Counted from the first letter of the stretch, positions 20,880-46,013 are shown. The stretch: DNA of 64,000 bases from Candidatus Woesearchaeota archaeon (GCA_020637495.1 JACJVV010000001.1:366232-430231), one strand, 5' to 3'. Made by a program: numbers and translations. The notes: generated from the sequence alone by a model not told the origin.

Positions 20880-22829
20880 ATGCTTAAGAAGATAATCAAT
20901 TACATTGTCATTGCAACTTTTTTTCTTGTTCCTTTGATTATCTGGTTAAACCATTTCAAACCTTTTGTGTCAATGAAGGATTTTATCTTCATCCTTGGTT
21001 CTTTCTTATCTTTTGGTCTCCTATTGATCTATCTTGTGTTTACTGGGAAGTTTGTAATAAAAAAGCGAAGGATTTTTGGGGTTGTGTTGATATATCTTGT
21101 AATAAATCTATTATCTTTTCTTCTCTCTGATTATGCAGATGGAAAAGTCTTACTAATTCTGAGCTCTTTAATTGTTATGTTCTTTGTAGTAGCATACTCA
21201 TTTGATGAACAGTATAGGGACAAGCTTGTCTATGGCTTGTTCATTGTATCTTTTATTTCATCTATCTATGGTTTTTTCCAATTCTTCGGTGTTGATTATG
21301 GATTGTTCGTGAATTATTTCGGTTCTCGGACAGAATATGGGATGAGGATATTCACATTGTTCGGTAATCCTAATATTCTCGGTGGCTTTTGTGTCTTCAT
21401 GCTACCTGTGATAGTAGGTTACTGGATAAAGAACAGAGGAGATCTGAAAAGACAGATTATTTTTGCTATCTTATTCATACTTAATTTCCTATCTTTACTG
21501 ATGTCGCAGACTAGAGGTTCATGGATTGCATTCTTTGCATCCGTTATCCTCTTTATTGCTCTCTATTATCGGAGGTATGGCTTTACTTTTATCAAAAAAT
21601 ACAGAATAAGTCTCACAATAATCTGCTTGACCATCATAATTGCCTCTTTATTTGTAGGTTATTTCCTTCTCTCTTCTAAAGATTTCACTGATCCAACATC
21701 TGCAAACATAAGGCTATTCTATTATTCAAACACTTTGGATATGATCTCTGAATCTCCTTCCTCTCTATTATTTGGTCGAGGGATAGGATCATTCAATGTC
21801 TACTATCCTTTGTATCGTGATAATCGCGTTGCATACCATACAGGAGAGAAGAATGCGGAATATCGTGTCGAACATCCTCATAATGAGCATCTAGAGATAT
21901 TGAATGACGTAGGTATCTTTGGTTATCTTGTATTCTTGTGGATAATATTTGAAGCAGTCTATCGACTGTTGAAAAAGAAAGATGTGGTGAATCTTGGATT
22001 CTCTGTTGCAATATTAGCATTGCTCATAGATGGTATAATGTCACAGAATCTTCGGTTCATAACAATAAGCTCATTATTATGGGTATCTTTGGCTTTCAGC
22101 CAGATCAATGAACAGAAGAATGCTACAAAAATTAGATTAAGCATGATGAAGATAATCTTTTCAATCATTGTCCTTATCATCTGCCTTATCCCTGTAAACT
22201 CAGCATTTTCAGTTATGAGATCTGATGAAAGTCTCAAATTAGGTATTAGCTATTATATCAGCCAGGTCCCTGATAAAGCAATACAAAATTTTGAGCAAGT
22301 ACTCAAACTTGATAAGAATAATAAACGTGCATTGTATTATCTTGCTTCTTCATACTCTATCCAAGGAGAGGAGGAGAAGGCAATCTCTTCATATAGTAGA
22401 TTGCTTTCTATCGATCCAAATTTTATCCAAACCAATTATCGTCTTGGGGTGATCTATCTTGAACTGCAAGAATATGCTCTTGCTGAAGACTCAATGGAAA
22501 AGCAAATACGGGTTAATAACATGTATTGGCAAGCATATTATGCGCTTGCATATCTTCATGCAACGGATGACAAGAGCAAAGCTCTTCAAAATCTAGAAGA
22601 GATTGAGAAAATATCATCCATCCTTGATGTTGAGAATGCTTCTGGCATAGATCAGTATGCTATACCTGAATCAGATCATATAGAGATCCTTAAGCTACAA
22701 GCACAGCTTTATGCAGATATTGGTGACCTTAACAATAGCCTCAGGATATTGAAGATACTTGATAATTTGACAGATGATGAAGCTATTGATCAGAATATTG
22801 CTGAGATTGAGAAATTCTTTGATATTTGA
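20880..22829 (+). CDS. O-antigen ligase/polymerase-like (Wzy_C) polytopic membrane protein fused to C-terminal TPR repeats
   Basis: About 10 TM helices with a MSQTRGSWIAFFASVILF Wzy_C-like segment and a large loop; the C-terminal ~230 aa carry TPR-like repeats (KAIQNFEQVLKLDKNNKRALYYLASSY...). Confidence 0.5.
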   Translation: MLKKIINYIVIATFFLVPLIIWLNHFKPFVSMKDFIFILGSFLSFGLLLIYLVFTGKFVIKKRRIFGVVLIYLVINLLSFLLSDYADGKVLLILSSLIVMFFVVAYSFDEQYRDKLVYGLFIVSFISSIYGFFQFFGVDYGLFVNYFGSRTEYGMRIFTLFGNPNILGGFCVFMLPVIVGYWIKNRGDLKRQIIFAILFILNFLSLLMSQTRGSWIAFFASVILFIALYYRRYGFTFIKKYRISLTIICLTIIIASLFVGYFLLSSKDFTDPTSANIRLFYYSNTLDMISESPSSLLFGRGIGSFNVYYPLYRDNRVAYHTGEKNAEYRVEHPHNEHLEILNDVGIFGYLVFLWIIFEAVYRLLKKKDVVNLGFSVAILALLIDGIMSQNLRFITISSLLWVSLAFSQINEQKNATKIRLSMMKIIFSIIVLIICLIPVNSAFSVMRSDESLKLGISYYISQVPDKAIQNFEQVLKLDKNNKRALYYLASSYSIQGEEEKAISSYSRLLSIDPNFIQTNYRLGVIYLELQEYALAEDSMEKQIRVNNMYWQAYYALAYLHATDDKSKALQNLEEIEKISSILDVENASGIDQYAIPESDHIEILKLQAQLYADIGDLNNSLRILKILDNLTDDEAIDQNIAEIEKFFDI

Positions 22830-22898: not shown

Positions 22899-23170
22899 GA
22901 GCGGAATATGTCGGGTAGGTAGCCTCTACCTCTGTTGCAAGCAGGCTTCATGGCAAGACTAGCGCCTGGTTTCGGCTTTAGGCCCTATGAAGGGTCTTTG
23001 CCTGGACGTTGAGAATCTGTCCTTCTGGACCGGATTGCATGGGAATCATGTCAGGGCAGGAATGCAGCAGCATTAACCTTGCAAACTGGTGTCTTAAGGG
23101 TTGCGGATTTGAGGAAAGGTGAAGGTAGCTTTTCATTGAGTTTACTGTCAATGCCAGGGTGTCCGCTCAC
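22899..23170 (+). ncRNA. ffs: Signal recognition particle RNA (7S/SRP RNA)
   Basis: A GC-rich island in AT-rich DNA. The 5' GAGCGGA pairs with the 3' UCCGCUC as a terminal helix. Helix-8 motif CAGGGCAGGAAUGCAGCAGCAUUAACC (GGAA tetraloop / AGCAGC asymmetric loop). 5' hairpins GGUAGGUAGCCUCUACC, and a T-run follows the 3' end. Confidence 0.7.
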
Positions 23171-28490: not shown

Positions 28491-28889
28491 ATGACACAAT
28501 TCGTTGCACTTTTATCTACAGGAAAAGGTACGTGGGCTGAAGTAGCAGGACTAATAAATAAGGAGGGGTTTAATGAGATATATATACTTACCAACGCATT
28601 TGGAAAGGATAAGTTCACTAACCTACCGAACAAGAAAGTCGAAGTGTTTGCATTTGATTTTGAGAAGGATATCAAAATGTTGACAAAAGATTTTGTTTCT
28701 GCTTTACGAGGACATGTCAAGTTTGGAGATTTAGCTGTGAATATCAGTAGCGGTGGCGGGAAAGAGCACATGGCTCTCATATCTGCATTGTTAAGCCTTG
28801 GTGTAGGTCTTAGATTTGTGACATTGCAGAACGGTACTGTATCTGAAGTCACTCCATCGTTTGATTCTGAGACTGGCAGATTGAAATAA
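28491..28889 (+). CDS. Hypothetical small alpha/beta protein (132 aa)
   Basis: Alternating beta/alpha pattern with a glycine-rich SSGGGKEH loop; not assignable to a family. Confidence 0.35.
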   Translation: MTQFVALLSTGKGTWAEVAGLINKEGFNEIYILTNAFGKDKFTNLPNKKVEVFAFDFEKDIKMLTKDFVSALRGHVKFGDLAVNISSGGGKEHMALISALLSLGVGLRFVTLQNGTVSEVTPSFDSETGRLK

Positions 28890-28929: not shown

Positions 28930-29556
28930 CTAATCTTTTCTTGATATATATACTCTGTATCCAGAACCTTTTGTCAATGCATCAACGTTGCCGAAGATAT
29001 CTTTCATATGCTGTTCATACTGCTTTCCACCTTTCTGATGACGGGAGACGGCTTGTAATGTACCACCTTCGTTTAGATGCTGAAAAGATTTCTCAATCAT
29101 CTGAAAACATATATCCTTGCCTGCATTCTGTGGAAGATTCACAAGTACAGTATCGAACTTCTTTCCTGATAAGTTATCAAACATGTCGCTTTGGACTACA
29201 ATCACATTGACACGATTCGATTGAGCATTCTCATTTGTAAGCTTTACTGCTCTTTCGTTTATGTCGCTACATGTCACATTACAATCAGGATTCAATCTCT
29301 TAAGTATTATACCTACTGCACCATATCCACACCCAAGATCAAGAACCTCTTTTCCAAGGACTGGTTTTTTTATCAGAAGCAAAGTGCCAGTATCAACCTT
29401 TCTTTTTGCGAAAACACCAGAACCAGTCTTGAAATTGAAACTAGTATTGTTTACGTCACATCTAATCGAGCTGAAGATAGCTTTAGAAGTCGGTTTTTTT
29501 GTGAAATAGTGCTCGGTCATCTTCTCTCCTGGCAAAATCTTAAATTGAGTGAACAA
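28930..29556 (-). CDS. Class I SAM-dependent methyltransferase (small-domain/RsmC-like)
   Basis: VLDLGCGYGAVGI motif I, DIN acidic motif II and an NLPQN (NPPxx-like) motif IV. Confidence 0.65.
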   Translation of the reverse strand: MFTQFKILPGEKMTEHYFTKKPTSKAIFSSIRCDVNNTSFNFKTGSGVFAKRKVDTGTLLLIKKPVLGKEVLDLGCGYGAVGIILKRLNPDCNVTCSDINERAVKLTNENAQSNRVNVIVVQSDMFDNLSGKKFDTVLVNLPQNAGKDICFQMIEKSFQHLNEGGTLQAVSRHQKGGKQYEQHMKDIFGNVDALTKGSGYRVYISRKD

Positions 29557-29571: not shown

Positions 29572-30387
29572 TTATTGCATGATACCTAAAAGTCCATACA
29601 GCATCCTATCAGTCGACCTTATTATTGTCTCATCAGTGCCATAGATAATAAAGCAGTTGCCATCAATCTCAATCTTCTCTTCTTGGTCTTCCTGGAAATA
29701 AACCACGAGATCATCCTCATTGCTGTCACAAGTTACTATAGGTCTGCTCTTGCATGCATCTGTTACATTTTCTGAGCATGCAGATATTAAGTTATAACTC
29801 TTAACTTTTTTGAGAACTTCACTCATCTCTGATACAGCTAAAGTAAGGTATGGCCTTGACACAGATGGATCTTTAGGGTCTATTGTTATATACATCTTTG
29901 TGTAATCTTTTTTCGGTATTGGGTTGATCGAATTCACTGATATATTCTCAACTTCCTTAGGCCCGAACCTGAATGGGATTATGAACATATTCTCTTCAAT
30001 CTGGTATTGCGTATACCAAAAATCAACATTAGTCTGTTCATCAGATAATCGTAAGAAGCTATATGAATTATATATGTAACTATTATCGGTAGGAGCTTTA
30101 TTATAGTTTTCTGAGAACAACTCATCCATTGTCTTAGGTTGCTCTTTGGACAGGTTAGGTATGATAAAGAGCAGTGCGAATATTATTATTATTCCCCCTA
30201 AAAGGACTGATATCTCTTTTAATGATATATCCTCAAACAGATTTCTTTTATTTCCTTTAGCTGTTGTTTTTTTAGTCTCATAAATATCTTTTTTATCATT
30301 ATCGTTATTAATATCTTTGGAAACTGTACTCCTAGAATCTTTAATCTTGGAATTATTATTGCTGGATCTTGCTTGCATCAACAACAC
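29572..30387 (-). CDS. N-terminally membrane-anchored extracytoplasmic protein, paralogue A
   Basis: One TM helix after a K/N-rich N-terminus. Its C-terminal block (TCDSNEDDLVVYFQED...IDGNCFIIYG...RMLYGLLGI) is shared with the adjacent gene. Confidence 0.45.
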   Translation of the reverse strand: MLLMQARSSNNNSKIKDSRSTVSKDINNDNDKKDIYETKKTTAKGNKRNLFEDISLKEISVLLGGIIIIFALLFIIPNLSKEQPKTMDELFSENYNKAPTDNSYIYNSYSFLRLSDEQTNVDFWYTQYQIEENMFIIPFRFGPKEVENISVNSINPIPKKDYTKMYITIDPKDPSVSRPYLTLAVSEMSEVLKKVKSYNLISACSENVTDACKSRPIVTCDSNEDDLVVYFQEDQEEKIEIDGNCFIIYGTDETIIRSTDRMLYGLLGIMQ

Positions 30388-30967
30388 CTAAGAATTCATA
30401 AATTATCCTTCCTGTAGCTCTTCTCATCTCATAAGCTGTCTGGAAATGCAGTCTTATACAGTTATCTGATTCGATATATGTAGAATTATCCTCAACAAAT
30501 TCAACCACAAGGAACTCATCTGTTGAATTATCACATGTTATAGTAGGCAGTTGTACATTATCTTTTGTGAATGCATTAACCATCTGTTTCTGGTTATTTG
30601 CAAAGACAGTATTCATCTGGTATGTTTGCAAAGCAATATCTTGTCTGTAGCTTGAGAATGGGTCTGATGTAATAATTATCGAATAAGCATCCTTAAGCCT
30701 ATTGATAGTTCCCTGCTCAATCTCAATATGCTCTGTCTCAATAGGGAGAACCTCAAAGTAATATGTCTTACCATCTACCTTAGTCTCATACCCATAATTT
30801 GTCTGCTTGAACTTGAATCCATTATACTTTTCTGTAGAATTATTACTTGAAAAGCCATAGAAAATAACACCAAACCCTGAAGTTGCCATTATCAAAGTTA
30901 TGAAAATACCCATATATAATGTCATCCTATTATTCTTCTTGTGAGTTCTATGACGTCTCATAATCAA
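30356..30967 (-). CDS. N-terminally membrane-anchored extracytoplasmic protein, paralogue B
   Basis: Same architecture and C-terminal block (TCDNSTDEFLVVEFVED...SDNCIRLHF...RIIYEFLGV) as paralogue A; the two overlap by 32 nt. Confidence 0.45.
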   Translation of the reverse strand: MIMRRHRTHKKNNRMTLYMGIFITLIMATSGFGVIFYGFSSNNSTEKYNGFKFKQTNYGYETKVDGKTYYFEVLPIETEHIEIEQGTINRLKDAYSIIITSDPFSSYRQDIALQTYQMNTVFANNQKQMVNAFTKDNVQLPTITCDNSTDEFLVVEFVEDNSTYIESDNCIRLHFQTAYEMRRATGRIIYEFLGVVDASKIQQ

Positions 30968-31023
30968 AGGTTTCAGAGGTATCTTTAAAAAGTTTTTTAA
31001 ACAATCTTCCTTGGTATATCAGC

Positions 31024-31713
31024 ATGACAAAAAAGGATGATGTAGTCATAAAACTTGAAGATGTGTGGAAGATCTATAAGATAGGGGATAATGAGATAAA
31101 TGCATTAGCAGGGGTTGATATTGAGATACCGCGCGGAAAATTTGTAGTTATAATGGGTCCTTCTGGAAGCGGAAAAAGTACTTGCGTAAACATGGTTGGT
31201 TGTCTGGATATACCAACTAAAGGTGAAATATATTTGAATGGTGATAATATAGCTCATCTTGGCGAGAGTGAGCTTGCGCAAATAAGAGGGAAAACCATAG
31301 GTTTCATCTTCCAGCAATTCAATCTGATTCCTACCTTGACAGCATTACAGAATGTCATGCTGCCAATGGCATTCCAGGATATGGATGTAGGGGAAAGAGA
31401 AGAAAGGGCAAAAGAGCTCCTTACTATGGTTGAACTTGGTGATAGGATGAATAATAGGCCTACTGAACTTTCAGGAGGGCAGCAACAACGTGTTGCAATA
31501 GCAAGGGCTTTGGCCAATGATCCTGATGTAATACTTGCAGATGAGCCTACAGGCAATCTTGATTCTAGAACTGGAATAATAGTCATGGAGTATCTGCAAA
31601 AACTCCATAATCAAGGAAAGACAATAATAATGGTGACCCATGACCCAAAGATGACAAAGTTCGCTGAAAGGGTAGTCTTGCTCAAGGATGGAAAAACAGT
31701 GAAAAAGTTATAA
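31024..31713 (+). CDS. ABC transporter ATP-binding protein, MacB/LolD-type
   Basis: Walker [11 protein letters not shown]-loop, signature [15 protein letters not shown], Walker [12 protein letters not shown], and an H-loop. Confidence 0.85.
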
Positions 31714-31749
31714 ATGAATGTAGTTTAAAAGATTACTAGGTGTAAAAAG

Positions 31750-33048
31750 GTGATTGCGATGAAAAAAGGAAGTCAAATAATGATGATTTTATCAGTTCTT
31801 ACAATATTATTATGTACTATTATGGCAGTCTCTGCTGCTTCAACAAATGTGATAGCAGATAAGGACATCAGGCTTACATTGGTCAATCAAGAGCCTGATC
31901 CTGTAGAACCTGGAGAATATGTAAAAGTAAAGTTCAAAGTAGAGAACTGGGGAAGTGAACCTACTGCACCTATAGTTGTTGGCCTCAAGCCAAGTTTTCC
32001 ATTTGAAGTAGTTGATGGTGATTATGAGCAGACAATACCTGGACTTGAGAGAAGACAGAAGGCTGACGATAGTGAAATAGTCGAATGGAGGCTTCTCATA
32101 GATAAGAATGCTGCAGAAGGTGCGAACAACTTGACTGTATATTATAGAGAACTCTCAGGGCAAAGAGTAAATATCATATCTGAAGAAGAGTTTGATATTG
32201 AAGTTAGGACCAGTGATACTATCCTGGAAGTTGTTGATATAATGACTGTTCCTGAAGATGTTGAGCCTGGACAAACTTCTAAATTAATATTAAAAGTAAA
32301 AAATCTTGCTGATAGTTTCATTAAGGATGTTAAGATTAGTCTTGATTTAGAAGATGTTAATATTGCAACTATTGGTTCAACAAGTGAAAAAATAATTCAA
32401 AAATTAGACGGTGGTGAAACTGTTAATGTTGAGTTTGATATTATGCCATCTTCATCTGTAGCTTTAGGAACTGTGAAAATTCCACTTAATATGGAGTTCA
32501 AAGATAATTTGAATAATAAATATACTCAAAATTCAACATTTGGTCTAGTTTTGAATAGTCCGGTAAGTTATATTTTGAATGTTGAAAGCAGTGAAATACT
32601 ATCTCTTAATCAAAAAGGAGATGTTACAGTACAAATTTCAAATAATGGAATTAATAATATTCAATTTCTTACCGTAGAGCTTAAACAAAGTAAAGATTAC
32701 AAAATTTTGTCATCACCTAAAATTTATATTGGTCAAGTTGATAGTGATGATTTTGAAAGTATAACATATACATTATATTCCAATGATACTGATGATTTTG
32801 GAAACATGAATCTTCGACTTTTGTTGACATACACTGATGATTATAACAAGGAGTATAATGTTGAAGAAGAAGTACCTATTAAAATATTCACTGCAAAAGA
32901 AATTAAAGATTATGGTCTAGTTCCATCAGGTAATGGTGGTATGTGGCTGTTAATAATAATAGTAGTTGCAGGTGTTTTTGGTTTCTTGTATTACAGAAAG
33001 AGAAAGAAGAAAAAGCAACAACAGCAACAAAAACAAAATAAGAAATAA
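31750..33048 (+). CDS. Secreted beta-rich cell-surface protein with a C-terminal TM anchor and K/Q-rich tail
   Basis: Signal peptide, repeated ~100-aa beta-strand-like segments, a C-terminal hydrophobic helix, then a KRKKKKQQQQQKQNKK tail; embedded in the ABC/FtsX operon. Confidence 0.5.
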   Translation: MIAMKKGSQIMMILSVLTILLCTIMAVSAASTNVIADKDIRLTLVNQEPDPVEPGEYVKVKFKVENWGSEPTAPIVVGLKPSFPFEVVDGDYEQTIPGLERRQKADDSEIVEWRLLIDKNAAEGANNLTVYYRELSGQRVNIISEEEFDIEVRTSDTILEVVDIMTVPEDVEPGQTSKLILKVKNLADSFIKDVKISLDLEDVNIATIGSTSEKIIQKLDGGETVNVEFDIMPSSSVALGTVKIPLNMEFKDNLNNKYTQNSTFGLVLNSPVSYILNVESSEILSLNQKGDVTVQISNNGINNIQFLTVELKQSKDYKILSSPKIYIGQVDSDDFESITYTLYSNDTDDFGNMNLRLLLTYTDDYNKEYNVEEEVPIKIFTAKEIKDYGLVPSGNGGMWLLIIIVVAGVFGFLYYRKRKKKKQQQQQKQNKK

Positions 33049-33058
33049 GGTCTGAAAG

Positions 33059-34276
33059 ATGATCATAGACCTTTTTTTATATTCTTTTAGAAATCTCAAA
33101 AATAGAAGATTGAGAACTTGGTTAACTATGATTGGAATAGTTATCGGTATTGCAAGTGTAATAGCACTTGTAGGTTTAGGAGGAGGATTAAAGGCGGCAA
33201 TAACTGGTCAGTTTACTGGTGTTAGTGCTGATATTCTAACTATACAAGCAGGTGGTGTTGCTTTTTCAGGTCCACCTGGTTCAGGTGTTGTAAATCCTCT
33301 TAAAAAAGATTATGTTGATGATATTGAAAAAATCTCTTATGTTGATTTTGCTGCTGGTCGTCTTATTGAGGCTGTTAAGATGGATTATAATAACATCCAA
33401 GATATAGCTGTAACTGCCACTATTCCAGGTGGGAAAGTTCGTACAGAATTTGAAAAAATATTTGATCTTAAACTTGAGCAAGGACGGTTGTTAAAAGATG
33501 AAGATACTTCTAAAGTCTTATTAGGACATAATTTCTTAAAAAAAGATAATGGCTTTGATAAAGAAATAGTTGCTGGTTCAAAAATTGAGCTTAATGGTAA
33601 GGGATATGAAGTTGTTGGTATTCTTAAAGCAAAAGGGAGTTTTATGTTTGATAGTGTAATTTTCTTTAATGATCAACCATTACGTGATATTGTAAATAAT
33701 AAAGATAATGTTGATTTAATTGTAGCACGTGTGAAAAACATTAATGATATTGATAAAGCTAAAGAAGCGATTGAAAAATATCTTAGAAATAAAAGAGATG
33801 TTAAAGAAGGTGAGGAAGATTTTAGGGTTCAATCTGCTCAATCAACTATTGACACAATTAATGGGGTTTTGGGCGGTGTTCAGGCTTTTGTAATCATTAT
33901 TGCTGCAATTAGTATGATTGTTGGAGCTATAGGAATAATAAATACTATGTTTACTGCTGTACTTGAAAGAAGAAAAGAAATTGGTATTATGAAATCAATA
34001 GGAGCTAAAAATGAAGATATCTTTTTATTATTTTTAATTGAGTCAGGTCTTCTTGGTTTTGTTGGCGGATTAATTGGAGTAATAATTGGATGGTTATTAG
34101 CAATCTTAGGAACAAATGCATTAAGTGCTGCATTAGGACTTGAAGCTTCACCAGATATCAGTTTTGCTTTTGCATTATTTGCATTACTTGCTTCATTCTT
34201 TATTGGAGCTGCTTCAGGTGTAATACCTGCAATGCAAGCAGCATCGATGAAACCAGTAGATGCTTTGCGGGGTTAA
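33059..34276 (+). CDS. ABC transporter permease, FtsX/MacB-like (1)
   Basis: N-terminal TM, a ~230-aa extracytoplasmic domain, and a C-terminal FtsX 3-TM bundle. Confidence 0.8.
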   Translation: MIIDLFLYSFRNLKNRRLRTWLTMIGIVIGIASVIALVGLGGGLKAAITGQFTGVSADILTIQAGGVAFSGPPGSGVVNPLKKDYVDDIEKISYVDFAAGRLIEAVKMDYNNIQDIAVTATIPGGKVRTEFEKIFDLKLEQGRLLKDEDTSKVLLGHNFLKKDNGFDKEIVAGSKIELNGKGYEVVGILKAKGSFMFDSVIFFNDQPLRDIVNNKDNVDLIVARVKNINDIDKAKEAIEKYLRNKRDVKEGEEDFRVQSAQSTIDTINGVLGGVQAFVIIIAAISMIVGAIGIINTMFTAVLERRKEIGIMKSIGAKNEDIFLLFLIESGLLGFVGGLIGVIIGWLLAILGTNALSAALGLEASPDISFAFALFALLASFFIGAASGVIPAMQAASMKPVDALRG

Positions 34277-34331
34277 AATCAATTTTAGGTTAATAATTAA
34301 TAAACTGAAAATATAAAACAAATTTACAAAA

Positions 34332-35555
34332 ATGATAACAAAAGAAAATTTTAATTATGCATTGAGGAACCTTTTCAATCGAAAGGTAAGGAGTTCTCTG
34401 ACAATATTATCTATTTTTGTAGGTATAGCTACAATATTTATATTTTTAAGTTTTGGCTTTGGATTACAAAATTACATTACTCAATTATCTACAGAAATAG
34501 GTGTTGATAAACTTTTTGTTCAAGCTAAAGGAATTGGTGCTCCAGGAACAGATCCTAATTTTAAGTTGACTGATGATGATTTGAGTGTGATTGAAAAAAC
34601 AAGAGGAATCACACAAGCTATAGGGATGCCTTATGGGAGTGGACAAGTAAAAAAAGATAAAAAAATTGTATATCAATACATGATTGGTATGCCAGTAAAT
34701 TCAAATAAAGATATTACTTTTGCTCTTGAATTTTTCACAGTAAAATTGCTTGAAGGTAGGAATCTCCAAAATGGTGACAATAATAAAATTGTCTTAGGAT
34801 ATAGTTATAGACTACCAAATAAAATCTTTGAAAAAGCATTGAAGATAGGAGATAAATTAGAAATCAATGGAGAAGAATTAAAAATTGTTGGTTTTTTTGA
34901 GGAACTTGGTAATCCTAGTGATGATGCGAATATTTATATGACTATAGATACATTTGATAGGTTAACTAATGCTACTGAGACAAATTATGCATTTTTAGTT
35001 GGTAGAGTCAATGACCCGGCAGATATGTCTGCAATCAAAGATAGAGTGGAACGAGAATTACGTAAATCTCGAGGTTTAGATGAAGGTAAGGAAGATTTTT
35101 TTGTCGCTTCCTTTGATGAATATATTGAATCTTTTTCAGGAGCTACAAATATTGTAAATGGTTTTATTTTGCTGATTGCACTTATTTCAGTTTTTGTCAG
35201 TATGATTAACACTGCAAACACAATGTTTACTTCAATTCTTGAACGAACAAAAGAAATCGGTGTATTGAAAGCAATAGGGGCAAAAAATTCTGAAATATTA
35301 ATTATTTTTTTATTAGAATCTAGTATATTAGGAATGGTTGCAGGAATTATAGGGGTATTAATTGGTTATCTAATTAGTTCTGCTGGAGGGAATATTCTGA
35401 AAGCATTAGGTTGGGGTTTTTTGCAACCTGCTTTTCCAAGTTCCTTATTCATTGGTTGTATACTGTTTGCAACATTAGTCGGCACAATTTCTGGGATGAT
35501 TCCGGCATACAATGCTTCAAAACAGAAACCTGTCGATTCACTGCGATATGAGTGA
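34332..35555 (+). CDS. ABC transporter permease, FtsX/MacB-like (2)
   Basis: Same architecture as the preceding permease; shares the ...SILERTKEIGVLKAIGAKNSEI... segment with it. Confidence 0.8.
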   Translation: MITKENFNYALRNLFNRKVRSSLTILSIFVGIATIFIFLSFGFGLQNYITQLSTEIGVDKLFVQAKGIGAPGTDPNFKLTDDDLSVIEKTRGITQAIGMPYGSGQVKKDKKIVYQYMIGMPVNSNKDITFALEFFTVKLLEGRNLQNGDNNKIVLGYSYRLPNKIFEKALKIGDKLEINGEELKIVGFFEELGNPSDDANIYMTIDTFDRLTNATETNYAFLVGRVNDPADMSAIKDRVERELRKSRGLDEGKEDFFVASFDEYIESFSGATNIVNGFILLIALISVFVSMINTANTMFTSILERTKEIGVLKAIGAKNSEILIIFLLESSILGMVAGIIGVLIGYLISSAGGNILKALGWGFLQPAFPSSLFIGCILFATLVGTISGMIPAYNASKQKPVDSLRYE

Positions 35556-35761
35556 AGTGAATTAGAATTGAATAACTTTGTTCTATCATTAGATATATTG
35601 GTTTGGGTTATCTTTTTATGATTAATAATTTATTCTAAATGTTACTTCTGTTAGGTAGTTATTATTAGAAAACTTTATAAACTTGCAAAAATTTCTACCT
35701 TCAAATGTTGTTATTAAGTAGTAATTACATATTATTCATGCTTATGAGGGGGAAATAAAAA

Positions 35762-38700
35762 ATGAGATTCATCAATCTGATATTATTCTTTTTTGTGATA
35801 GCACTTGCTGGTTCAGCATTTGCATATGACTCAGGATGGAATCAGCTTGCACCTCAGAATGGCGGTGCATGTGGCTGTGCTTATCCTTCATGCGAAGAAA
35901 GCGACTATGGTCTTACATGGTTGCAAGAAGGCTCATGCGTAACAAGTGCGAGTTATGATTTCTTATGCCAAGGCAATAGATGTAATATCCTAAAAAGCAT
36001 AGGTGCAGGCAGGACATATGATATTCCCTCAACAGGCAATTACTATCTTTCTGTCGACGCTATATGGAGCAGTGAATATGAGCGATTATATGGTGGTGTA
36101 AACACATGGGGTTCAGATTCAATAAGAAGATCATCTTATGATTTCAACAGTGCAGTACAATGTGTATGGAGAAATCCTTTCTATGTAAATTCAGATCCTG
36201 CACAAGTATGGTTTGAAGGCGCATCAAATTCAGGTAGCGTCCATGTAGGATATTTCAGGCTTTCAACAGAGATCCCTGATGATGTATATGTGTTCTGTGA
36301 CGATGGATCACAGGTTCCACATGTTTATGAATGTAATGATGGTATTGATAATGATGGAGATGGTTATGTAGATTACCCATATGATCTTGGATGTTCAAGT
36401 TCTGTTGATAACGATGAGGGTGATGGCCATGTAGCATGCTACTCGGACAGCAACTGTGGAAATACTCAGATAAGCACAAGCTGTAATATTGCTGGCGATC
36501 ATGTAACTACTATAACTAATTATGATTGTATAAATCCAGGAACAGAGCATAGCTATTGCACAAGTTCGCAGCAGACTTCAACAGATGATTGTGACTACAT
36601 CTGCTCTAACAGCCTTGGTTGTGATTATACAGAATGTTCCGATAAGATTGATAATGATGTTGATTCTACCATAGATTTCCCTAATGATGCAGGATGCAGT
36701 GATTATTATGATGATGACGAGAGTGACGGACCAGTAACTTGCTATAGCAATAGTGATTGCGATTATCTAGATGATATTGACTCATATTGTACTGGTTCCC
36801 TATATAAGACTGAGACTCTTGATGGTGTATGCAACTATGCAGGAACTGATGCAAGCTATTGCTCACAGAAAGTTAAGAATGTGGTAGTTGACCAGTGCAG
36901 CTACATCTGCAGTGATAGTCTTGGATGTGATTATACAGAATGTTCTGATAGGACCGATAATGACAATGATGGGACAATAGATTATCCAATTGATCTTGGA
37001 TGCAGTGATTACTATGATGATGACGAGAGTGATGGCTATGTCGCTTGCTATAATAATGCAGATTGTGGAGCAATTACTAATGACTATTCATGCAATTATG
37101 CTGGAGACTATGTGCAGACTACAACTGTTCCAAACTGCTTCAATGCAGGTACAGAACAGAGCTATTGCATTGATATAATTGACACAACAACAGATGATTG
37201 TGCAAACATCTGCTCTAATTCATATGGATGCGACTATACAGAGTGCAGTGATGGCATTGATAATGATAATGATAATTTTGTAGACTTCCCTGATGATCTA
37301 GGTTGCAGTAATTACTATGACGATGACGAAAGCAATGGTCCAGTGGAATGCTATTCAAATGGGGATTGTGTAGTGAACAATGTAGTCAATACCTATTGTG
37401 ATGGTGATGATTTTGTGACTGAAGTTCCTAAGGGAGTATGTGATAATCCTGGAACAGAACAAAGCCAATGCATCATAGAGTATAATGTGGATGTTGAGAA
37501 GTGCAATAACATCTGCTCTAATTCACTTGGATGCGACTATACAGAATGTTCAGACGGAATCGATAATGATAATGATAATTTTGTTGACTATCCAATTGAT
37601 TCAGCCTGTAATAATTATTATGACGATGATGAATCTGGTGATATTAAATTAGTTGAGACAAAATGGGACATAGATATATTGAGTAGTAGTGATACATATC
37701 AGACAGATAGGGGATGCCATGATATCTCTGTTAAGGTAGAGGCATATGATAGTTTTGACGATGTTGAGATTACTGTGAGGATACCAGGTACACCATATGG
37801 TCTAGTTAATACCTCTGACTTATTTGATATCGTGAATGGTCAGATTGTGACAAAGAGTATGCTACTATGCCTTCCTGATGATATGGAAACAGATTATTAT
37901 ACTCTAGTAGTTCAAGGAGATGACTCTGATGGGTCATTGTTCATACAGAATTATCCAATCAAACTTGAAGGATTACCAGTGGAATGCTATACACATTCAG
38001 ACTGTGGTCTTAATGGATTTACAGAATATTGTTCAGTCCAAGGGAATCATGTGACTGAGAGTACAATGTTCTATTGCCATAATGCAGGAACTGAATTAAG
38101 CTTCTGTACAAATGAGACAAATTCAAACGTTGATGAATGCGATTATATATGCAGCAATAATCTTGGCTGTGATTATACAGAGTGTAGTGATGGGATCGAC
38201 AATGATAATGATAATCTTGTCGATTATCCTAATGATCTAGGGTGTGATAATTATTACGATGATGATGAGAGCAATGATCCTATTGAATGCTATTCAAATG
38301 ATGATTGTCCTCAGACAAGCCAGCCAGCACCATATTGCGATGGCAATGATTATGTGGTCGTTGAAGTAGACAGTGTATGTGTAAATCCAGGAACAGCCCA
38401 GAGTTCATGCGAAGCAATATCAAATGAGATGATCCAGGAATGCAACTACATCTGCAGCAATAACCTTGGTTGTGACTATACAGAATGCAGTGATGGACAA
38501 GATAATGACGGCGATGGACTGGTTGATTATCCTAATGATCCTGGTTGTTTAAGTTACTCTGATACAGATGAATATAATATAATTACAGTGGTACATGAAT
38601 GCAGTGATGGAATAGATAATGACGGAGATGGTTCAGCTGATTATCCATATGATTTCAGCTGCTCAAGCCCTACTGACGATGATGAGACATATCCAAGACC

Positions 38701-40579
38701 TGAATGCTATGATGGCATTGATAATGATGGCGATGGGTATGTAGATCTTGTAGATGCAGGATGTGATAGTACTCAAGATAATGATGAGAGGAATGTAATA
38801 TGCTTTAGCAATTCAGATTGCGGTTCATCTAACGATGATTCATATTGCAATATCAATGGAGACTATGTTGTTGACACAACAACTCCTACATGCTTCAATG
38901 CAGGAACCTACTATAGTTATTGTGCTGATATTGTCTATGACAACGTAGAGGAATGTACAGGCTCATGCACAAATGCAAACGGTTGTGAGTACACAGAATG
39001 CAGCGATGGCATCGATAATGATAATGATGGCAGCATTGATTATCCTAATGATCTAGGTTGCACTTCCCCTGAAGATGACAACGAGGCTGACGGATATGTG
39101 ATGTGCAACTCCAATTCAGACTGTGGAAGCATGAATATTGGTACTAGTTGCGTCGATGGTGATTTCCTTACAACAACAACGATTCCAACATGCCTCAATC
39201 CAGGAACAGAACAGAGCTCATGCTATATAAATATGAGTGATGAATGGGACTATTGCAGCAATTCATGCAGCGATGATCTAGGATGCGATTCTACTGAATG
39301 TTCAGACGGCATCGACAATGACAATGATGGTTATGCAGATTATCCTAACGATCTAGGATGCAGCAATTACTATGACAATGATGAGAGTGACGGGAACGTT
39401 GAATGCAACACTGATCTAGATTGCGGAAGCATTTCTGTCGGATACAGCTGCGATTACAATTCATTTACAACAACAACTACTACACCTGTATGCATTGATG
39501 CAGGGACAGAACACAGTTCTTGTACAGAGACTGTTGATGTAGATGCTGTAGGATGCAATAATGTATGCTCTGCTGAATATGGCTGTGATTACACAGAATG
39601 CAGCGATGGCATCGATAATGATAATGATGGCTTGATCGATTTTGGAGACGACCCTGGTTGTGATAGTTATAGTGATAATGATGAATATAACGCACCTGTC
39701 ATAAGCTGCTATTCTGATTCAGACTGTGGCTACCTTGATGGAACAAACACACATTGCGAAGAACTTGATTTTGTGATTGAGACAAATGTAGGCATATGTG
39801 TTGATGCAGGGACTTCAGATAGCTATTGCACAGGTGAATATTATAGCACTGAAACAATAGCTTGTACATTGACATGCAATGATGCATACGGATGCATGAA
39901 TGCAGAATGCAGCGACGGTATCGACAATGATGGTGATGGAAACATAGATCTCAGCGATGCAGGTTGCGACAACGAGTTTGACGATGATGAGAGTGATGAA
40001 CCGGTTTATGTACCACAATGTTCAGACGGTATCGATAATGATGGTGATACATTGGTTGACATGGACGATCCAGGTTGCAGTTCTCCTGATGATGACTTTG
40101 AAGGAGATGGAACAAGCGCTTGTGATGATGGCATAGACAACGACAACGACGGCTTAATTGATAGTAATGATCCTGGATGCCTAAGTCCTCAGGACAATGA
40201 TGAGTATAATGCAGCAATCTATAGTGATGCAGGGGATGATGAAGACCTCATAATTGAGAACATGGTACTTATCGATGGCGGTAAAGTTACAGGTATTGAA
40301 TCAGCAGTTGTAGAAGCAGGAGATGAAGTGACAGTTGGAGTAACTTTCAGAAATAGGGGAGATAACAGGCTTGATGATGTCAGGTTACAGGTATCCATCC
40401 CTGAGCTAGGGATTTCCAGAAGGATACATAAGTATGACCTTTCAGTTGGTGAAAGGGAGCTGGCTCACGTTGATTTATTGATCCCAGATTGGGTCCAACC
40501 AGGTGAGTATCTAGTGAGGGTGCTTGTCTATGATGAAGAGGCAAAACGTCTTCAGCATAGGTATTTAACCATACAGTAA
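35762..40579 (+). CDS. Giant secreted Cys/Asp-rich repeat protein (1605 aa) with ~15 MopE-like putative metal-binding modules and a C-terminal CARDB-like domain
   Basis: Signal peptide. An ~95-aa module (...CSNSLGCDYTECSDGIDNDNDGxIDYPNDLGCSxYYDDDESDGxVxCYSNSDCG...C..AGTExSxC...) recurs ~15 times; the C...DGxDNDxDGxxD core recurs also in shorter tandem copies near the C-terminus. One ~110-aa non-repeat insert, and a C-terminal beta domain (RLDDVRLQVSIPELGISRR...PGEYLVRVLVYDEE). Confidence 0.7.
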   Translation: MRFINLILFFFVIALAGSAFAYDSGWNQLAPQNGGACGCAYPSCEESDYGLTWLQEGSCVTSASYDFLCQGNRCNILKSIGAGRTYDIPSTGNYYLSVDAIWSSEYERLYGGVNTWGSDSIRRSSYDFNSAVQCVWRNPFYVNSDPAQVWFEGASNSGSVHVGYFRLSTEIPDDVYVFCDDGSQVPHVYECNDGIDNDGDGYVDYPYDLGCSSSVDNDEGDGHVACYSDSNCGNTQISTSCNIAGDHVTTITNYDCINPGTEHSYCTSSQQTSTDDCDYICSNSLGCDYTECSDKIDNDVDSTIDFPNDAGCSDYYDDDESDGPVTCYSNSDCDYLDDIDSYCTGSLYKTETLDGVCNYAGTDASYCSQKVKNVVVDQCSYICSDSLGCDYTECSDRTDNDNDGTIDYPIDLGCSDYYDDDESDGYVACYNNADCGAITNDYSCNYAGDYVQTTTVPNCFNAGTEQSYCIDIIDTTTDDCANICSNSYGCDYTECSDGIDNDNDNFVDFPDDLGCSNYYDDDESNGPVECYSNGDCVVNNVVNTYCDGDDFVTEVPKGVCDNPGTEQSQCIIEYNVDVEKCNNICSNSLGCDYTECSDGIDNDNDNFVDYPIDSACNNYYDDDESGDIKLVETKWDIDILSSSDTYQTDRGCHDISVKVEAYDSFDDVEITVRIPGTPYGLVNTSDLFDIVNGQIVTKSMLLCLPDDMETDYYTLVVQGDDSDGSLFIQNYPIKLEGLPVECYTHSDCGLNGFTEYCSVQGNHVTESTMFYCHNAGTELSFCTNETNSNVDECDYICSNNLGCDYTECSDGIDNDNDNLVDYPNDLGCDNYYDDDESNDPIECYSNDDCPQTSQPAPYCDGNDYVVVEVDSVCVNPGTAQSSCEAISNEMIQECNYICSNNLGCDYTECSDGQDNDGDGLVDYPNDPGCLSYSDTDEYNIITVVHECSDGIDNDGDGSADYPYDFSCSSPTDDDETYPRPECYDGIDNDGDGYVDLVDAGCDSTQDNDERNVICFSNSDCGSSNDDSYCNINGDYVVDTTTPTCFNAGTYYSYCADIVYDNVEECTGSCTNANGCEYTECSDGIDNDNDGSIDYPNDLGCTSPEDDNEADGYVMCNSNSDCGSMNIGTSCVDGDFLTTTTIPTCLNPGTEQSSCYINMSDEWDYCSNSCSDDLGCDSTECSDGIDNDNDGYADYPNDLGCSNYYDNDESDGNVECNTDLDCGSISVGYSCDYNSFTTTTTTPVCIDAGTEHSSCTETVDVDAVGCNNVCSAEYGCDYTECSDGIDNDNDGLIDFGDDPGCDSYSDNDEYNAPVISCYSDSDCGYLDGTNTHCEELDFVIETNVGICVDAGTSDSYCTGEYYSTETIACTLTCNDAYGCMNAECSDGIDNDGDGNIDLSDAGCDNEFDDDESDEPVYVPQCSDGIDNDGDTLVDMDDPGCSSPDDDFEGDGTSACDDGIDNDNDGLIDSNDPGCLSPQDNDEYNAAIYSDAGDDEDLIIENMVLIDGGKVTGIESAVVEAGDEVTVGVTFRNRGDNRLDDVRLQVSIPELGISRRIHKYDLSVGERELAHVDLLIPDWVQPGEYLVRVLVYDEEAKRLQHRYLTIQ

Positions 40580-40735
40580 TAGCAAAATTCCATTTTTTAT
40601 TTACTTTAAAATGGTAACAAAAGCGAAATATTTAAATAGTAGGGAGGTATTCTCTACCTAAAACGGCAGCAATGCTGTCCACGAGAATACTCGAAAATAA
40701 ATAACAATCAAAACACTAAATTGGGGGTTACGCAA

Positions 40736-42037
40736 ATGAAGGGTTTTAAAACAATAGCAATCGTCGCTTTGATGCTTTGTGCATTCCTGGCTTCAGCTCT
40801 TGCAGTTGATCTAGGCAGCGTACTTGACGTTACAACAAAGATCGATGGCGATATTGTAAGTCCAAACGAAGATGTTAGAAAGGACTTTGAAAGAGGAGAA
40901 ATAGTTGACCTGAAAGTCAATGTGATTTCTGAAATAGAATTGGAAGATGTCGAGATTACAGCAATAATCTCAGGTTATGAATTCAACAACATCGAGCCAA
41001 TGTCAGATACATCAAGCATTTTTGACATGGAACCAAATGTCTCATACAGTAAGAGACTTAATGTAAGAATTCCAGTTGAAGTTGAAGAAGACAACTACAA
41101 GTTGAGAATCTTGGTTTCAAACAGATATGGTCAATCAGTGATATATGATTATAATCTAAAGCTAGATTCACCAAGACACGGATTCCAGATTGAGGATGTA
41201 GTATTCTCACCAGGAACAGTTGTTGAAGCTGGAAGAGCTTTGTTGACAACAGTACGTGTTGAGAACAAGGGTGAGAGGGATGAAGACAGCGTTAAGGTGT
41301 CAGTAGCAATCCCAGAACTAGGCGTAAGCGCTTCAGATTTCATCGATGAGATCGAATTTGAAGATTCTGAAACAAGTGAAGAGATGTACATGAGAATTCC
41401 AGTATGTGCACAGCCAGGCGATTATCAGGCAGTTATCGAAGTAAGATACAATGAACTAAGAGAAGCTGTTTATGAGAATGCTATCATCACAGTTGTAGAA
41501 AGTGATGCATGCGGTGCTGCAATGGGACAGAATGAAGCTCAGACAACAATCGCTCTGGGTGCAACATCACAGAACTTGGTTCCTGGAGAAGCAGGAGCAT
41601 TGTATCCATTGACAATAACAAATAATGGTAATGGTGCAGTTGCTTACAGCGTTTCAGTTGAAGGAACAAACGATTTCGCATCAGTTCAGATCAACCCAGT
41701 CAGTACATTCGTACTTAATGGTGGAGACAGCCAGGCTGTTTTCGTTTACCTAACACCTGCTGAAGATGCAGCTGAAGGTCAGCATGTATTCACAGTAAGC
41801 GTGAACTCAGGTAATGAAGTACTTAAGCAGATCCCTTTGACTGCAGTAGTTGAAGAAGGAGACGGCAAATCAAGTTCAAGTGGAAGCGTAAACCTCAGAG
41901 ATGCACTTGAAGTTGGACTTATTGTGCTTGTTGTCCTTTTGATCATCCTAGCAGTTGTTGTAGGAATCAAGAAGCTTAAGGAAGAACAGGAAGACAATGA
42001 TGACGAAGATGACGTAGAGGGTAAAACCTACTACTAA
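40736..42037 (+). CDS. CARDB-like repeat cell-surface protein with a C-terminal TM anchor and acidic tail
   Basis: Signal peptide, three beta-domains carrying ...SVKVSVAIPELGVSA...PGDYQAVIEVRYN-type segments like the giant protein's C-terminus, then a TM helix and a DDEDD tail. The ORF track begins at a TTG at 40721; ATG 40736 is preceded by GGGGGT. Confidence 0.55.
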   Translation: MKGFKTIAIVALMLCAFLASALAVDLGSVLDVTTKIDGDIVSPNEDVRKDFERGEIVDLKVNVISEIELEDVEITAIISGYEFNNIEPMSDTSSIFDMEPNVSYSKRLNVRIPVEVEEDNYKLRILVSNRYGQSVIYDYNLKLDSPRHGFQIEDVVFSPGTVVEAGRALLTTVRVENKGERDEDSVKVSVAIPELGVSASDFIDEIEFEDSETSEEMYMRIPVCAQPGDYQAVIEVRYNELREAVYENAIITVVESDACGAAMGQNEAQTTIALGATSQNLVPGEAGALYPLTITNNGNGAVAYSVSVEGTNDFASVQINPVSTFVLNGGDSQAVFVYLTPAEDAAEGQHVFTVSVNSGNEVLKQIPLTAVVEEGDGKSSSSGSVNLRDALEVGLIVLVVLLIILAVVVGIKKLKEEQEDNDDEDDVEGKTYY

Positions 42038-45500: not shown

Positions 45501-45731
45501 ACAAATGAACCAGTATGGGAGGAAAGCTATACTTACATATTGATAGGCATGGTAATAGTCCTTCTTTTGATAATATTGATTGTATTCTTGAACACGAAAC
45601 CAGTCAAGAAAAGTGAGCAAGAGAATAATAAGCCAAAAGATGAGAAGCCTGTGAATGATAAGCAAGGGATTGAGGAAGAACCATCAAAGCCTGACTCAAA
45701 AAAGTCTGAAGGTTTTTTCAAGAATTTCTAG
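42543..45731 (+). CDS. Large polytopic membrane protein (1062 aa) with an N-terminal extracytoplasmic beta-domain, a highly charged K/R/E segment and sequon-dense loops
   Basis: Signal peptide. At least seven hydrophobic helices. A ~130-aa KEKEKLRKRKEREERRRK... charged coil. Clusters of N-x-S/T sequons (NATMDGNATNISNETIDIFDNSTGDAFDNETLNATNITD), and a C-terminal TM plus K/E tail. Confidence 0.5.
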   Translation: MGDLKHSVLVGVLAILAIFSLSIAYAATEDFQYSAASQYQACACDAFAIPAIIENTGEVVSFYQISHQGSAAEWVQTVPSVISVNAGESASVANFVNVPCDARGTYEIYTQVESTFGLNKVHVANINVNKCQVIDVSLATPSTAMVCAGDVASYEFNLENSGSFREDLKVEIDNIEDISQFNLPSYTVNPGRTEKAYLYITSFKDIGNYQANITFTATRSGWEYKIPIRYSSVDCSPKDVSGDEVGLPSIATLLNVAVILLIILLLIVFIVLVVKVVDKRRRTEAVMTDKEKGKLNSEKEKEKLRKRKEREERRRKFRERWESARLKRKEEREKARKRREEERKKAQEKRDKERQEKEKQKKADARKVANKKTRDEKKKNDQKQTKPARKKTAGKKNSIKSTILWIIIIIVALLLLGLIIWGIIAAVPYISDMFQSNATMDGNATNISNETIDIFDNSTGDAFDNETLNATNITDVESNNPVIGFFTNYGTACSVWISIFFILFIASLFLLGIKDGVDWSKAKKQWFKYVKYTLPIVLFIALLLSFVFCIMSNLSSEWPGSCSIVTIENETYDGGYFASNESIFNTTELMNDSSVIVDKKPVSSCFCTTLFGFDGWWCLILLALLIVIILIIMWLVVVVPVWVAGLKRKQKKGAKATEKQKKSSVRKTARKSKKEKKDPKILNIWKDIILLLILLLLLLAIGVYFYNAYKMEQPFMKLLDTEEFDHPYDESLICNATFEHNGIALTLPETQLFDINNATYLLEYSWYLEDLDEEGNYSLEVENQRSNRLLTRDIEIGDRWICEVSFILEETDDATNETNVTVQRFNSTIYNIIDPEAIIEDEQPEEIEQEITNETNVSDDADIVEDTEVIDVNESGIEENETVMEEPDEVDQMITFIAENNLTKSFHYLVMSSGSKVIDLTDNFEDPDGDELFFTSATNSSNITIDIWKGKATITAAEGFRGLADAKFLAEDPSGEIVTATMTIVVTNEPVWEESYTYILIGMVIVLLLIILIVFLNTKPVKKSEQENNKPKDEKPVNDKQGIEEEPSKPDSKKSEGFFKNF

Positions 45732-45777
45732 AAAACATTTAAAAAAGAACTTGCAGTTCTGATATTCATTACGTTTT

Positions 45778-45851
45778 GGGGACGTAGTATAAGCTGGTTA
45801 GTATAGTTGGCTCCAGACCATCGGATCGGGGTTCAAATCCTCGCGTCCCCA
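45778..45851 (+). tRNA. tRNA-Trp (anticodon CCA)
   Basis: Acceptor stem GGGGACG/CGUCCCC with discriminator A. D-arm GUAU-AAGCUGGUUA-GUAU. Anticodon arm GUUGG-CUCCAGA-CCAUC with a single U:U mismatch. T-arm CGGGG-UUCAAAU-CCUCG; no encoded CCA and no intron. Confidence 0.8.
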
Positions 45852-46013
45852 TTTTCTATTTAGGATTTGAACATGCTCTCACTTCGTTCGGCAGTTTGCT
45901 CACTTCGTTCACAAACAATCCTCGCGTCCCCATTTTCTATCTAGGATTTGAACATGCTCTCACTTCGTTCGACAGTTTGCTCACTTCGTTCACAAACAAT
46001 CCTCGCGTCCTCA
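45852..46013 (+). repeat. Two tandem ~81-bp repeat units immediately 3' of tRNA-Trp, each ending in a copy of the tRNA 3' end
   Basis: Units 45852-45932 and 45933-46013 are ~95% identical. Each starts with GGATTTGAAC (the reverse complement of the tRNA T-loop half), contains the internal direct repeat CTCACTTCGTTC x2, and ends with AATCCTCGCGTCC[C/T]CA (last 16 nt of the tRNA; 1 mismatch in the distal copy). Confidence 0.85.

Follow-up and report, generated by a model that had tools for sequence, protein, structure and literature searches.

ATP-binding cassette (ABC) machines of type VII, among them MacB, LolCDE, FtsEX, and BceAB, are central to bacterial envelope biology, and the established view of the MacB fold is that it works by mechanotransmission and transports nothing through the membrane (PMC5985334). 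The main review of the type VII family mentions archaea 0 times (PMC5985334), and our literature searches for an archaeal module of this kind (COG1361/ABC, MJ0795/MJ0797, archaeal or DPANN MacB/FtsX, type VII ABC) found no paper. Here, we describe such a module in a 64,000-nucleotide stretch of a Candidatus Woesearchaeota archaeon genome (GCA_020637495.1 JACJVV010000001.1:366232-430231), hereafter called the window, whose archaeal nature is indicated by an archaeal signal recognition particle RNA at positions 22899-23168 on the plus strand (109 bits). Four genes in a row encode an ATPase, a membrane-anchored COG1361 protein with immunoglobulin (Ig)-like domains, and two permeases, designated X1 and X2, which probably form a type VII (MacB/FtsX-fold) ABC mechanotransmission complex of the composition ATPase2-X1-X2, with the COG1361 protein as its partner and a substrate located outside the membrane. 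All six open reading frames (ORFs) that an earlier reading of the sequence alone had placed here, namely these four and two genes upstream, pA and pB, were present where it had put them. The genes of the module are as follows (TM, transmembrane helix; AF2, AlphaFold2).

31024..31713, plus strand: ABC ATPase of the LolD/MacB/MJ0796 type, a separate gene (229 amino acids; Pfam, NCBIfam, and PDB sequence matches)
31750..33048, plus strand: COG1361 protein, bitopic, with three Ig-like domains (432 amino acids; AF2 model)
33059..34276, plus strand: permease X1, with TM1, MacB_PCD, and TM2-4 (FtsX) (405 amino acids; Pfam)
34332..35555, plus strand: permease X2, an ancient paralogue of X1 (407 amino acids; Pfam)

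Domain content and comparison with known systems

The ATPase matched the Pfam ABC_tran domain (E = 6.6e-34), and its top NCBIfam matches were MacB (2.2e-72) and LolD (8.1e-69), with DarD, DevA, and FtsE matched as well, all under the equivalog cut-offs. The catalytic motifs are intact, with Walker A at position 45, LSGGQ at 149, the Walker B motif ILADEP at 170, and the H-loop THD at 205. The closest solved sequence was Methanocaldococcus jannaschii MJ0796 (1f3o; E = 2e-73, 217 amino acids aligned), and the next PDB matches were Spr0694 (5xu1_A), MacB, and LolD. These matches, together with the complete motifs, bear out the MacB/LolD-like ATPase of the earlier reading, and the gene product can be described as a LolD/MacB-type nucleotide-binding subunit. 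In two relatives of the module (L072:2383-4695 and L064:59-1636), the ATPase gene is split by an intein with a LAGLIDADG homing endonuclease, which in both cases is located before position 25 of the ABC_tran profile, close to Walker A.

Both permeases carry MacB_PCD and FtsX domains above the Pfam gathering scores (4.5e-30 and 7.2e-20, respectively, in X1; 2.3e-21 and 2.7e-20 in X2), with the MacB_PCD match spanning positions 1-206 of the 207 in the profile. Both therefore show the architecture of a type VII permease (MacB_PCD plus FtsX, in the order TM1, ectodomain, TM2-4), in agreement with the two FtsX-type permeases that had been recognized from the sequence. The PDB sequences closest to the permeases were MacB (5lil, 2.2e-35 for X1; 5nik), Spr0695 (5xu1_M), and YtrF.

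Of the described systems, LolCDE resembles the module in having one ATPase gene and two paralogous four-TM permeases with a large extracytoplasmic domain and the type VII fold; it acts on an outer-leaflet substrate, and the LolD, LolC, and LolE models all matched window proteins. The gene content of LolCDE, that is, a heterodimer-type permease pair with one ATPase, is thus also found here, at the level of the genes. On the other hand, the equivalog level was not reached by any subunit: the permeases scored 48.9 and 70.4 bits against TIGR02212 (cut-off, 362.45) and 23-37 bits against the LolC/LolE exception models (439-540), and the ATPase scored 231.5 bits against the LolD model TIGR02211 (307.75). 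Furthermore, the organism is a monoderm archaeon without an outer membrane, and what joins the ATPase and permeases on the extracytoplasmic side is TM-anchored and built of three Ig-like domains. No LolA or LolB was seen among the Pfam-annotated neighbours, in which no dedicated search for them was made.

Among solved structures, the sequences most closely related to the permeases (5lil, 5nik, and 5xu1_M) and to the ATPase (5xu1_A) come from the group of MacAB-TolC, Spr0693-0694-0695, and YknXYZ, and the Gram-positive MacAB-like pumps share with this locus the separate ATPase and permease genes and an extracytoplasmic partner encoded in the operon. The differences lie in the partner and in the subunits. 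No HlyD/MacA-type adaptor was found in the 31 window proteins scanned or within 7-10 kb on each side of the module in the Pfam-annotated related loci, so the membrane-fusion protein of MacAB has no counterpart here, and the partner in its place is C-terminally anchored, all-beta, and Ig-like. In addition, there are two distinct permeases where MacB is a homodimer, there is no outer-membrane duct, and the ATPase is encoded by a separate gene for 229 amino acids and is not fused to a permease. FtsEX, BceAB, YbbAP, and YtrEF have the same fold and mechanotransmission logic (PDB matches 8hd0, 7tcg, 9ge6, and 9o9x) and illustrate how diverse the family's partners, extracytoplasmic or in the membrane, can be. 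However, the FtsX models gave only 33.6-53.9 bits against cut-offs of 225-255, FtsX has a small loop domain instead of the full MacB_PCD found here, and neither a peptidoglycan hydrolase nor a histidine kinase nor a fused double permease is encoded here. Because the equivalog scores fail, no membrane-fusion protein is present, and the ATPase is unfused, we class the module, on profile scores and gene content, as a member of neither LolCDE nor MacAB; it combines a LolCDE-like subunit logic with a MacAB-like, operon-encoded partner.

The archaeal protein MJ0796 (1f3o, 1l2t, and 3tif), the closest solved relative of the window ATPase, is regarded as a LolD/MacB-type nucleotide-binding domain (PMC8277102). 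In that case, the ATPase alone was studied, as a model nucleotide-binding domain. Its genomic neighbours are presumably a COG1361 protein and a single FtsX-type permease (MJ0795-MJ0797).

Operon conservation and the two permease lineages

Relatives of the module were encoded in at least 340 genome stretches in a scan of GTDB species genomes. We compared 85 related loci, five obtained by exact-protein look-ups and 80 from the GTDB scan, whose ORFs were annotated by phmmer using the window proteins as queries. Many of the GTDB records with the module are titled "uncultured Methanosarcinales archaeon" (e.g., L008, L010, L016, and L023), which looks like a placeholder used by the submitter; L008 is the same contig as L002. 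After the removal of duplicates, the order ATPase-COG1361-X1-X2 was found in 39 loci and COG1361-X1-X2-ATPase in nine, and most of the other loci are cut short at contig edges. The order COG1361-X1-X2 was constant, and only the ATPase gene shifts between the first and last positions. Across 81 related loci, the module hardly varied: both permease genes were kept in 61 of the 65 loci with at least 2.7 kb of sequence after the COG1361 gene, and further Pfam-annotated loci contained the same four genes. The median gaps were -4 nt between the ATPase and COG1361 genes, 18.5 nt between COG1361 and X1, and -4 nt between X1 and X2, implying translational coupling. This arrangement recurs in dozens of independent loci, far beyond chance, and the module appears to be near-universal in Woesearchaeota and Nanoarchaeota. 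The occurrence of an intein-bearing ATPase in two lineages, together with flanking aminoacyl-tRNA synthetase and other housekeeping genes, suggests that the function of the module is a core one; we regard the module as vertically inherited.

The two permeases of the window had been described as sharing long identical segments, which is not the case: the longest identical run is five amino acids (NTMFT) or 13 nt. X1 and X2 are 35% identical overall, with 28% identity in the extracytoplasmic domain and 46% in TM2-4. Their relationship became clear when 130 permeases from 65 loci were compared with one another. For all 130, the nearest neighbour in another locus was a permease encoded at the same gene position, and the mean identity was 47% and 44% between permeases of the same position but 38% across positions. 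By this criterion, the first- and second-position permeases are two ancient orthologous lineages, and because the nearest neighbours match by position in every case, the duplication must be older than the divergence of these lineages.

Ancient lineages kept in a fixed order are what an obligate heterodimer would be expected to leave, and the evolutionary pattern supports X1 and X2 as a putative heterodimer of the LolC/LolE kind, for which LolC and LolE provide the precedent within the type VII superfamily (PMC5985334). Alternatively, X1 and X2 may not pair with each other and instead form two homodimeric pumps that share the ATPase and act on different substrates from within one operon. MacB and FtsX are homodimers (PMC5985334), and the conserved residue sets of X1 and X2 are nearly equal: at a threshold of 80%, the two lineages are not separated by any alignment column, and the residues conserved solely in X1 or solely in X2 number only four and three, respectively. 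Even so, the fixed order and the usual 4-nt overlap of X1 and X2 fit an obligate pair better than two homodimers, both genes have been retained together across deep divergence, and LolCE is a heterodimer encoded in the same manner (PMC5985334), so we regard two separate homodimers as improbable. The heteromeric MacB-like mechanotransmission pump that the sequence-only reading had proposed accordingly agrees with both the type VII domain content and the fixing of the X1 and X2 lineages by position in 65 loci.

The COG1361 protein and the putative work of the module

The COG1361 protein had been noticed as a secreted, beta-rich protein with a C-terminal anchor, and its AF2 model (predicted local distance difference test [pLDDT], 87.2) is in line with this description. 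It consists of three Ig-like beta-sandwich domains (approximately residues 40-152, 159-268, and 274-378), preceded by a hydrophobic N-terminal helix with an A-x-A-type cleavage context, resembling a signal peptide, and followed by a TM helix and a Lys-rich tail. Pfam gave a weak match to CARDB, and PDB sequence and profile searches were empty or returned noise. Foldseek searches against the PDB yielded no specific fold relative, with only generic multi-Ig or macroglobulin-type matches (integrin legs, alpha-2-macroglobulins, and complement) at template modelling scores of no more than 0.32. The motifs QxPDPVEPG and Y.G..DSDD are invariant in the family. We considered the membrane-proximal Ig domain as the most conserved one, and hence as a docking site, but this was not supported, as all three domains are near-equally constrained, with pairwise identities of 36-40%. 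A tblastn search with the protein against plasmids, aimed at other archaea, gave no match.

As for the role of this protein, its homologues at 32-56% identity (P0004, P0008, P0013, P0022, P0032, P0033, and P0064) carry the NCBI name "COG1361 S-layer family protein", and Ig domains of the CARDB type recur as generic modules in surface proteins, among them the 438-amino-acid and giant proteins of the window itself. These facts, together with the lack of a specific functional relative in the structure search, would be consistent with a protein that is no working partner of the pump, being either a co-transcribed surface-layer (S-layer)-like protein or the pump's own cargo or client. However, the COG1361 gene is always located directly upstream of X1, even where the ATPase gene moves, and the whole ectodomain is conserved to the level of the permeases. 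COG1361 genes are also present in Thermoplasmatales (Thermoplasma and Ferroplasma) that lack an S-layer (PMC10354927), which argues against a role in the lattice, and a single-copy protein of 432 amino acids with a TM anchor is unlikely to form one. We therefore consider it quite unlikely that the protein is a bystander or a client. Because it is single-copy, TM-anchored, and locked to the permease genes, it is better read, from gene linkage, as the pump's putative dedicated extracytoplasmic partner.

The complex that we infer from these observations would be organized as LolD2-LolC-LolE is, with two copies of the ATPase driving an X1-X2 heterodimer. The binding and hydrolysis of ATP in the cytoplasm would be relayed by the long helices of the stalk to the pair of large domains outside the membrane, and the work would be done outside the membrane, on the outer leaflet or in the space beneath the S-layer, by analogy with the bacterial systems, with nothing crossing the bilayer. 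The COG1361 protein, held by its C-terminal TM helix, would occupy the place that the MacA adaptor, LolA, or EnvC occupies in those systems.

In terms of what the complex might act on, the genes around the module in its relatives provide some indications. Among the same-strand ORFs directly upstream of the ATPase gene, 33 of 37 (including a few duplicate contigs) fell into two clusters of proteins of approximately 160 amino acids. When six of these ORFs were scanned with Pfam, PadR (PF03551) was identified in three, and the other three had a weak or no match to MarR-type winged-helix domains; a weak MarR match was also recorded at the same position in an independently annotated locus. These winged helix-turn-helix regulator genes, which most ATPase-first relatives carry, abut or overlap the ATPase gene (e.g., L083:4191-4688, L079:6680-7204, L002:8837-9313, and L086:9374-9859), and the two clusters, PadR and MarR-like, are unrelated to each other. 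The window and its closest relative lack this gene, having lost it or never possessed it; in the window, the 56-bp gap upstream of the ATPase gene is too short to contain a regulator, and tblastn across the window revealed no homologue. Downstream of the second permease gene, a MATE efflux gene was present in five relatives (L002:13730-15094, L007:11684-13057, L011:11654-13030, L017:9945-11339, and L040:6053-7420), overlapping or abutting it in three; MatE was assigned by Pfam for L002, and the remaining four were grouped with it by BLAST.

Operons led by a repressor and occasionally followed by MATE hint weakly at an inducible protective or efflux role. Because a PadR- or MarR-like regulator leads the operon in most relatives and MATE sometimes follows it, we tentatively suggest that the module might protect the envelope by removing or extracting from the cell surface a compound or peptide of amphipathic nature, a reading that we hold with less than even confidence. 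Among the candidate substrates and activities, the protective extraction or efflux of amphipathic molecules ranks above a Lol-like extraction of lipid-anchored molecules, which in turn ranks above an FtsEX-like activation of an external partner. Another and much bolder reading is that the module is the archaeal counterpart of the envelope-spanning ABC machines, in which the Ig stalk, approximately 12 nm long when extended, would bridge the membrane and the S-layer. In a DPANN episymbiont, such a machine, possibly together with pA and pB, might extract or hand over surface lipids or lipid-anchored molecules. We consider this very unlikely; if true, it would represent an envelope-building or host-derived lipid-handling route with no described archaeal equivalent.

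Several points weigh against a type VII mechanotransmission complex with a dedicated partner and a protective task. Its function is argued by analogy with bacteria, which have a different envelope. Regulators and MATE make for a circumstantial argument, and in the window no regulator gene accompanies the operon. If a generic surface protein of the Ig type were simply co-transcribed with the pump, the picture would be identical to that of a partnership. Few lineage-specific residues are conserved in the permeases, and the case for a heterodimer is an evolutionary one only. Furthermore, the sampled loci all come from DPANN archaea.

Neighbouring genes and the meaning of the module

The features that flank the module in the window are listed below; the remarks on promoters and terminators were made by reading the sequence by eye.

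28930..29556, minus strand: small MTS-type methyltransferase, the third gene of the pB-pA operon (208 amino acids; Pfam MTS, 3.3e-39)
29572..30387, minus strand: pA (271 amino acids; BLASTP and hhalign)
30356..30967, minus strand: pB (203 amino acids, or 201 as called by NCBI; AF2 model and profile search)
30968..31023, no strand: divergent intergenic region of 56 bp, AT-rich, with the TATA-like elements CTTTAAAAAGTTTTTTAAAC (read directly from the sequence)
35556..35761, no strand: AT-rich spacer of 206 nt between the module and a giant gene (read directly from the sequence)

The proteins pA and pB are paralogues, as had been recognized, with 30% identity over 135 amino acids in BLASTP (E = 7e-10) and a match of their family profiles over 161 columns in hhalign (probability, 99.9; E = 4.9e-35). 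Two invariant Cys are common to both, and pA has two more conserved Cys (four in total) and a longer, low-complexity cytoplasmic N-terminus. The 32-nt overlap reported for their genes holds for the GTG start of the longest ORF, whereas an alternative ATG at position 30378 gives 23 nt. Both are anchored by a TM helix at the N-terminus and carry conserved Cys in the ectodomain, and N-x-T sequons are conserved as well. The pB ectodomain is alpha/beta in the AF2 model (pLDDT, 87.6; predicted template modelling score, 0.74), for which Foldseek against the PDB found no significant match (best E = 0.065) and the PDB profile search was empty. A Pfam search with 22 pB family members gave nothing consistent; OST3_OST6 was matched by two members only (E = 0.063) and was dismissed as noise. 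The pB profile retrieved 3105 cluster representatives, among which 638 reached E <= 1e-30, although a word-index search with the single sequence returned pB only, so that an alignment was needed as the query. The proteins are thus members of a large unannotated family with a confident AF2 model that matches no known fold.

The genes for pB, pA, and the small MTS methyltransferase form an operon that is divergent from the pump, with pB first, and the 56-bp region at 30968-31023 between the two operons is probably a bidirectional promoter region. The methyltransferase gene is conserved downstream of pA in many loci and is probably not part of the pump. Convergent with it, at 28491-28889 on the plus strand, the window encodes p132, a small conserved protein without a Pfam match, which is 118 amino acids long in most relatives, occurs in the same neighbourhood in many loci, and lies beside an HFX_2341_N-domain protein in L086.

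Given this divergent arrangement, pA and pB might be part of the pump's extracytoplasmic machine, for example as a second pair of ectodomains, and share a bidirectional promoter with it. Of 42 ATPase-first loci, 36 had the pair directly upstream of the module, and in metagenome loci selected by pB and gathered with a sub-clade alignment (L087-L144), the module was divergent upstream in 21 of 25, with clear exceptions; only 56 bp separates the two operons in the window, and both proteins are bitopic with ectodomains. However, pA and pB are tied more closely to the methyltransferase and p132 than to the pump, with pA following pB in 32 of 33 of the pB-selected loci, and none of the eight ATPase-last loci had the pair next to the module, even though a pA gene lies 7.5 kb away in at least one of these genomes. 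Regulators or insertions of 1-3 kb often separate the pair from the module, several pB loci have no module nearby, and the region as a whole consists of housekeeping genes whose order changes slowly. We therefore think it unlikely that pA and pB belong to the machine; their position next to the pump is a strongly conserved neighbourhood, which the slow rearrangement of a housekeeping region explains equally well.

In the ATPase-last loci (e.g., L004:14703-16847, L146:11883-14098, and L145:11479-13362), two further genes come after the module on its strand. The first encodes a protein of approximately 530 amino acids, which is of the DsbA/thioredoxin-cupredoxin type where Pfam matches were recorded (L004 and L146), and the second a small TM-anchored protein of 167-192 amino acids with six invariant Cys. 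These six-Cys proteins were considered as relatives of pA and pB and rejected, as hhalign gave probabilities of only 16% and 5%.

Downstream of the module in the window, a giant gene begins 206 nt past the second permease gene. It encodes a secreted protein of 1605 amino acids that has a Sec signal peptide of its own, 10 or more acidic double-disulfide repeats (NF033662), and an NPCBM_assoc/CARDB-like domain at the C-terminus, and it belongs to a run of surface-protein genes at 35762-42037 and 42543-45731 on the plus strand. This run includes a 438-amino-acid, PACE-CTERM-like protein that may be of the S-layer (78 bits; cut-off, 110) and a 1062-amino-acid multi-TM protein with Big_9/cadherin-like domains. 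The sequence-only reading had accordingly suggested that the module is a device dedicated to the assembly or export of the giant Cys-rich protein and other downstream surface proteins, and had named, as what would speak against this, a lack of conserved synteny in relatives together with antimicrobial-peptide or lipoprotein substrates at the locus instead. The succession of the module, the giant gene, the PACE-CTERM-like protein, and the 1062-amino-acid membrane protein in the window is suggestive, and L001/L006, which is the closest relative (56% identity between the COG1361 proteins), also encodes large proteins downstream, one of them a homologue of the giant protein.

In the phmmer comparison of the ORFs of the 85 loci, however, L001/L006 was the only relative with a giant homologue downstream of the module. 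Elsewhere, the next genes belonged to varied families, including opposite-strand radical-SAM (16), DsbA/cupredoxin (9), MATE (5), and a glycosyltransferase pair (4), and no downstream protein exceeded 800 amino acids. Synteny with the giant gene is thus not conserved, and the module occurs far more widely than that gene does. The related loci showed neither antimicrobial-peptide nor lipoprotein genes next to the module; what they showed were the PadR- or MarR-like regulators upstream and, in five loci, MATE downstream. Moreover, the 206-nt spacer contains a T5 run (35613) and the TATA-like sequence TTTATAAA, which may act as a terminator and a promoter, respectively, the giant gene carries its own strong Shine-Dalgarno sequence (GAGGGGG), and the giant protein bears the signal peptide mentioned above. 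MacB-type pumps are also not thought to carry substrates across the cytoplasmic membrane, and no protein translocation across it is known for the MacB fold (PMC5985334). A dedicated role in the assembly or export of the giant protein is extremely unlikely on this evidence, and an attractive but wrong link between the module and that protein can be removed.

Further away in the window, aminoacyl-tRNA synthetase genes are frequent upstream of the module (leucyl-tRNA synthetase and the tryptophanyl-/tyrosyl-tRNA synthetase type, at 17884 and 27375), and a Wzy_C/tetratricopeptide-repeat membrane protein is encoded at 20880-22829. Downstream, a tRNA-Trp gene (CCA) is located at 45777-45852 on the plus strand, and a surface-glycan gene cluster occupies 49634-58216 on the minus strand. 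This cluster encodes a UDP-glucose dehydrogenase, a nucleotidyltransferase, RmlC- and RmlD-like proteins of the dTDP-rhamnose pathway, a GT2 glycosyltransferase, a PMT_2-like protein, and the rhamnan-synthesis protein RgpF.

Taken as a whole, the module belongs to a known family of pumps, in a form for which we found no earlier description: a LolCDE-like and putatively heterodimeric variant with a TM-anchored partner of three Ig-like domains, a class of partner that appears to be undescribed for the family. Beside it, pA and pB draw attention to a large unannotated protein family. In family terms, the system is ordinary, yet an important machine is conserved here in an archaeal form that has not been studied and whose partner is unusual. 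It is a near-universal and tightly coupled operon in the minimal genomes of Woesearchaeota and Nanoarchaeota, and its retention by minimal genomes implies that it is likely to be important. The module is a target for asking what role mechanotransmission plays in a cell that has neither peptidoglycan nor an outer membrane.

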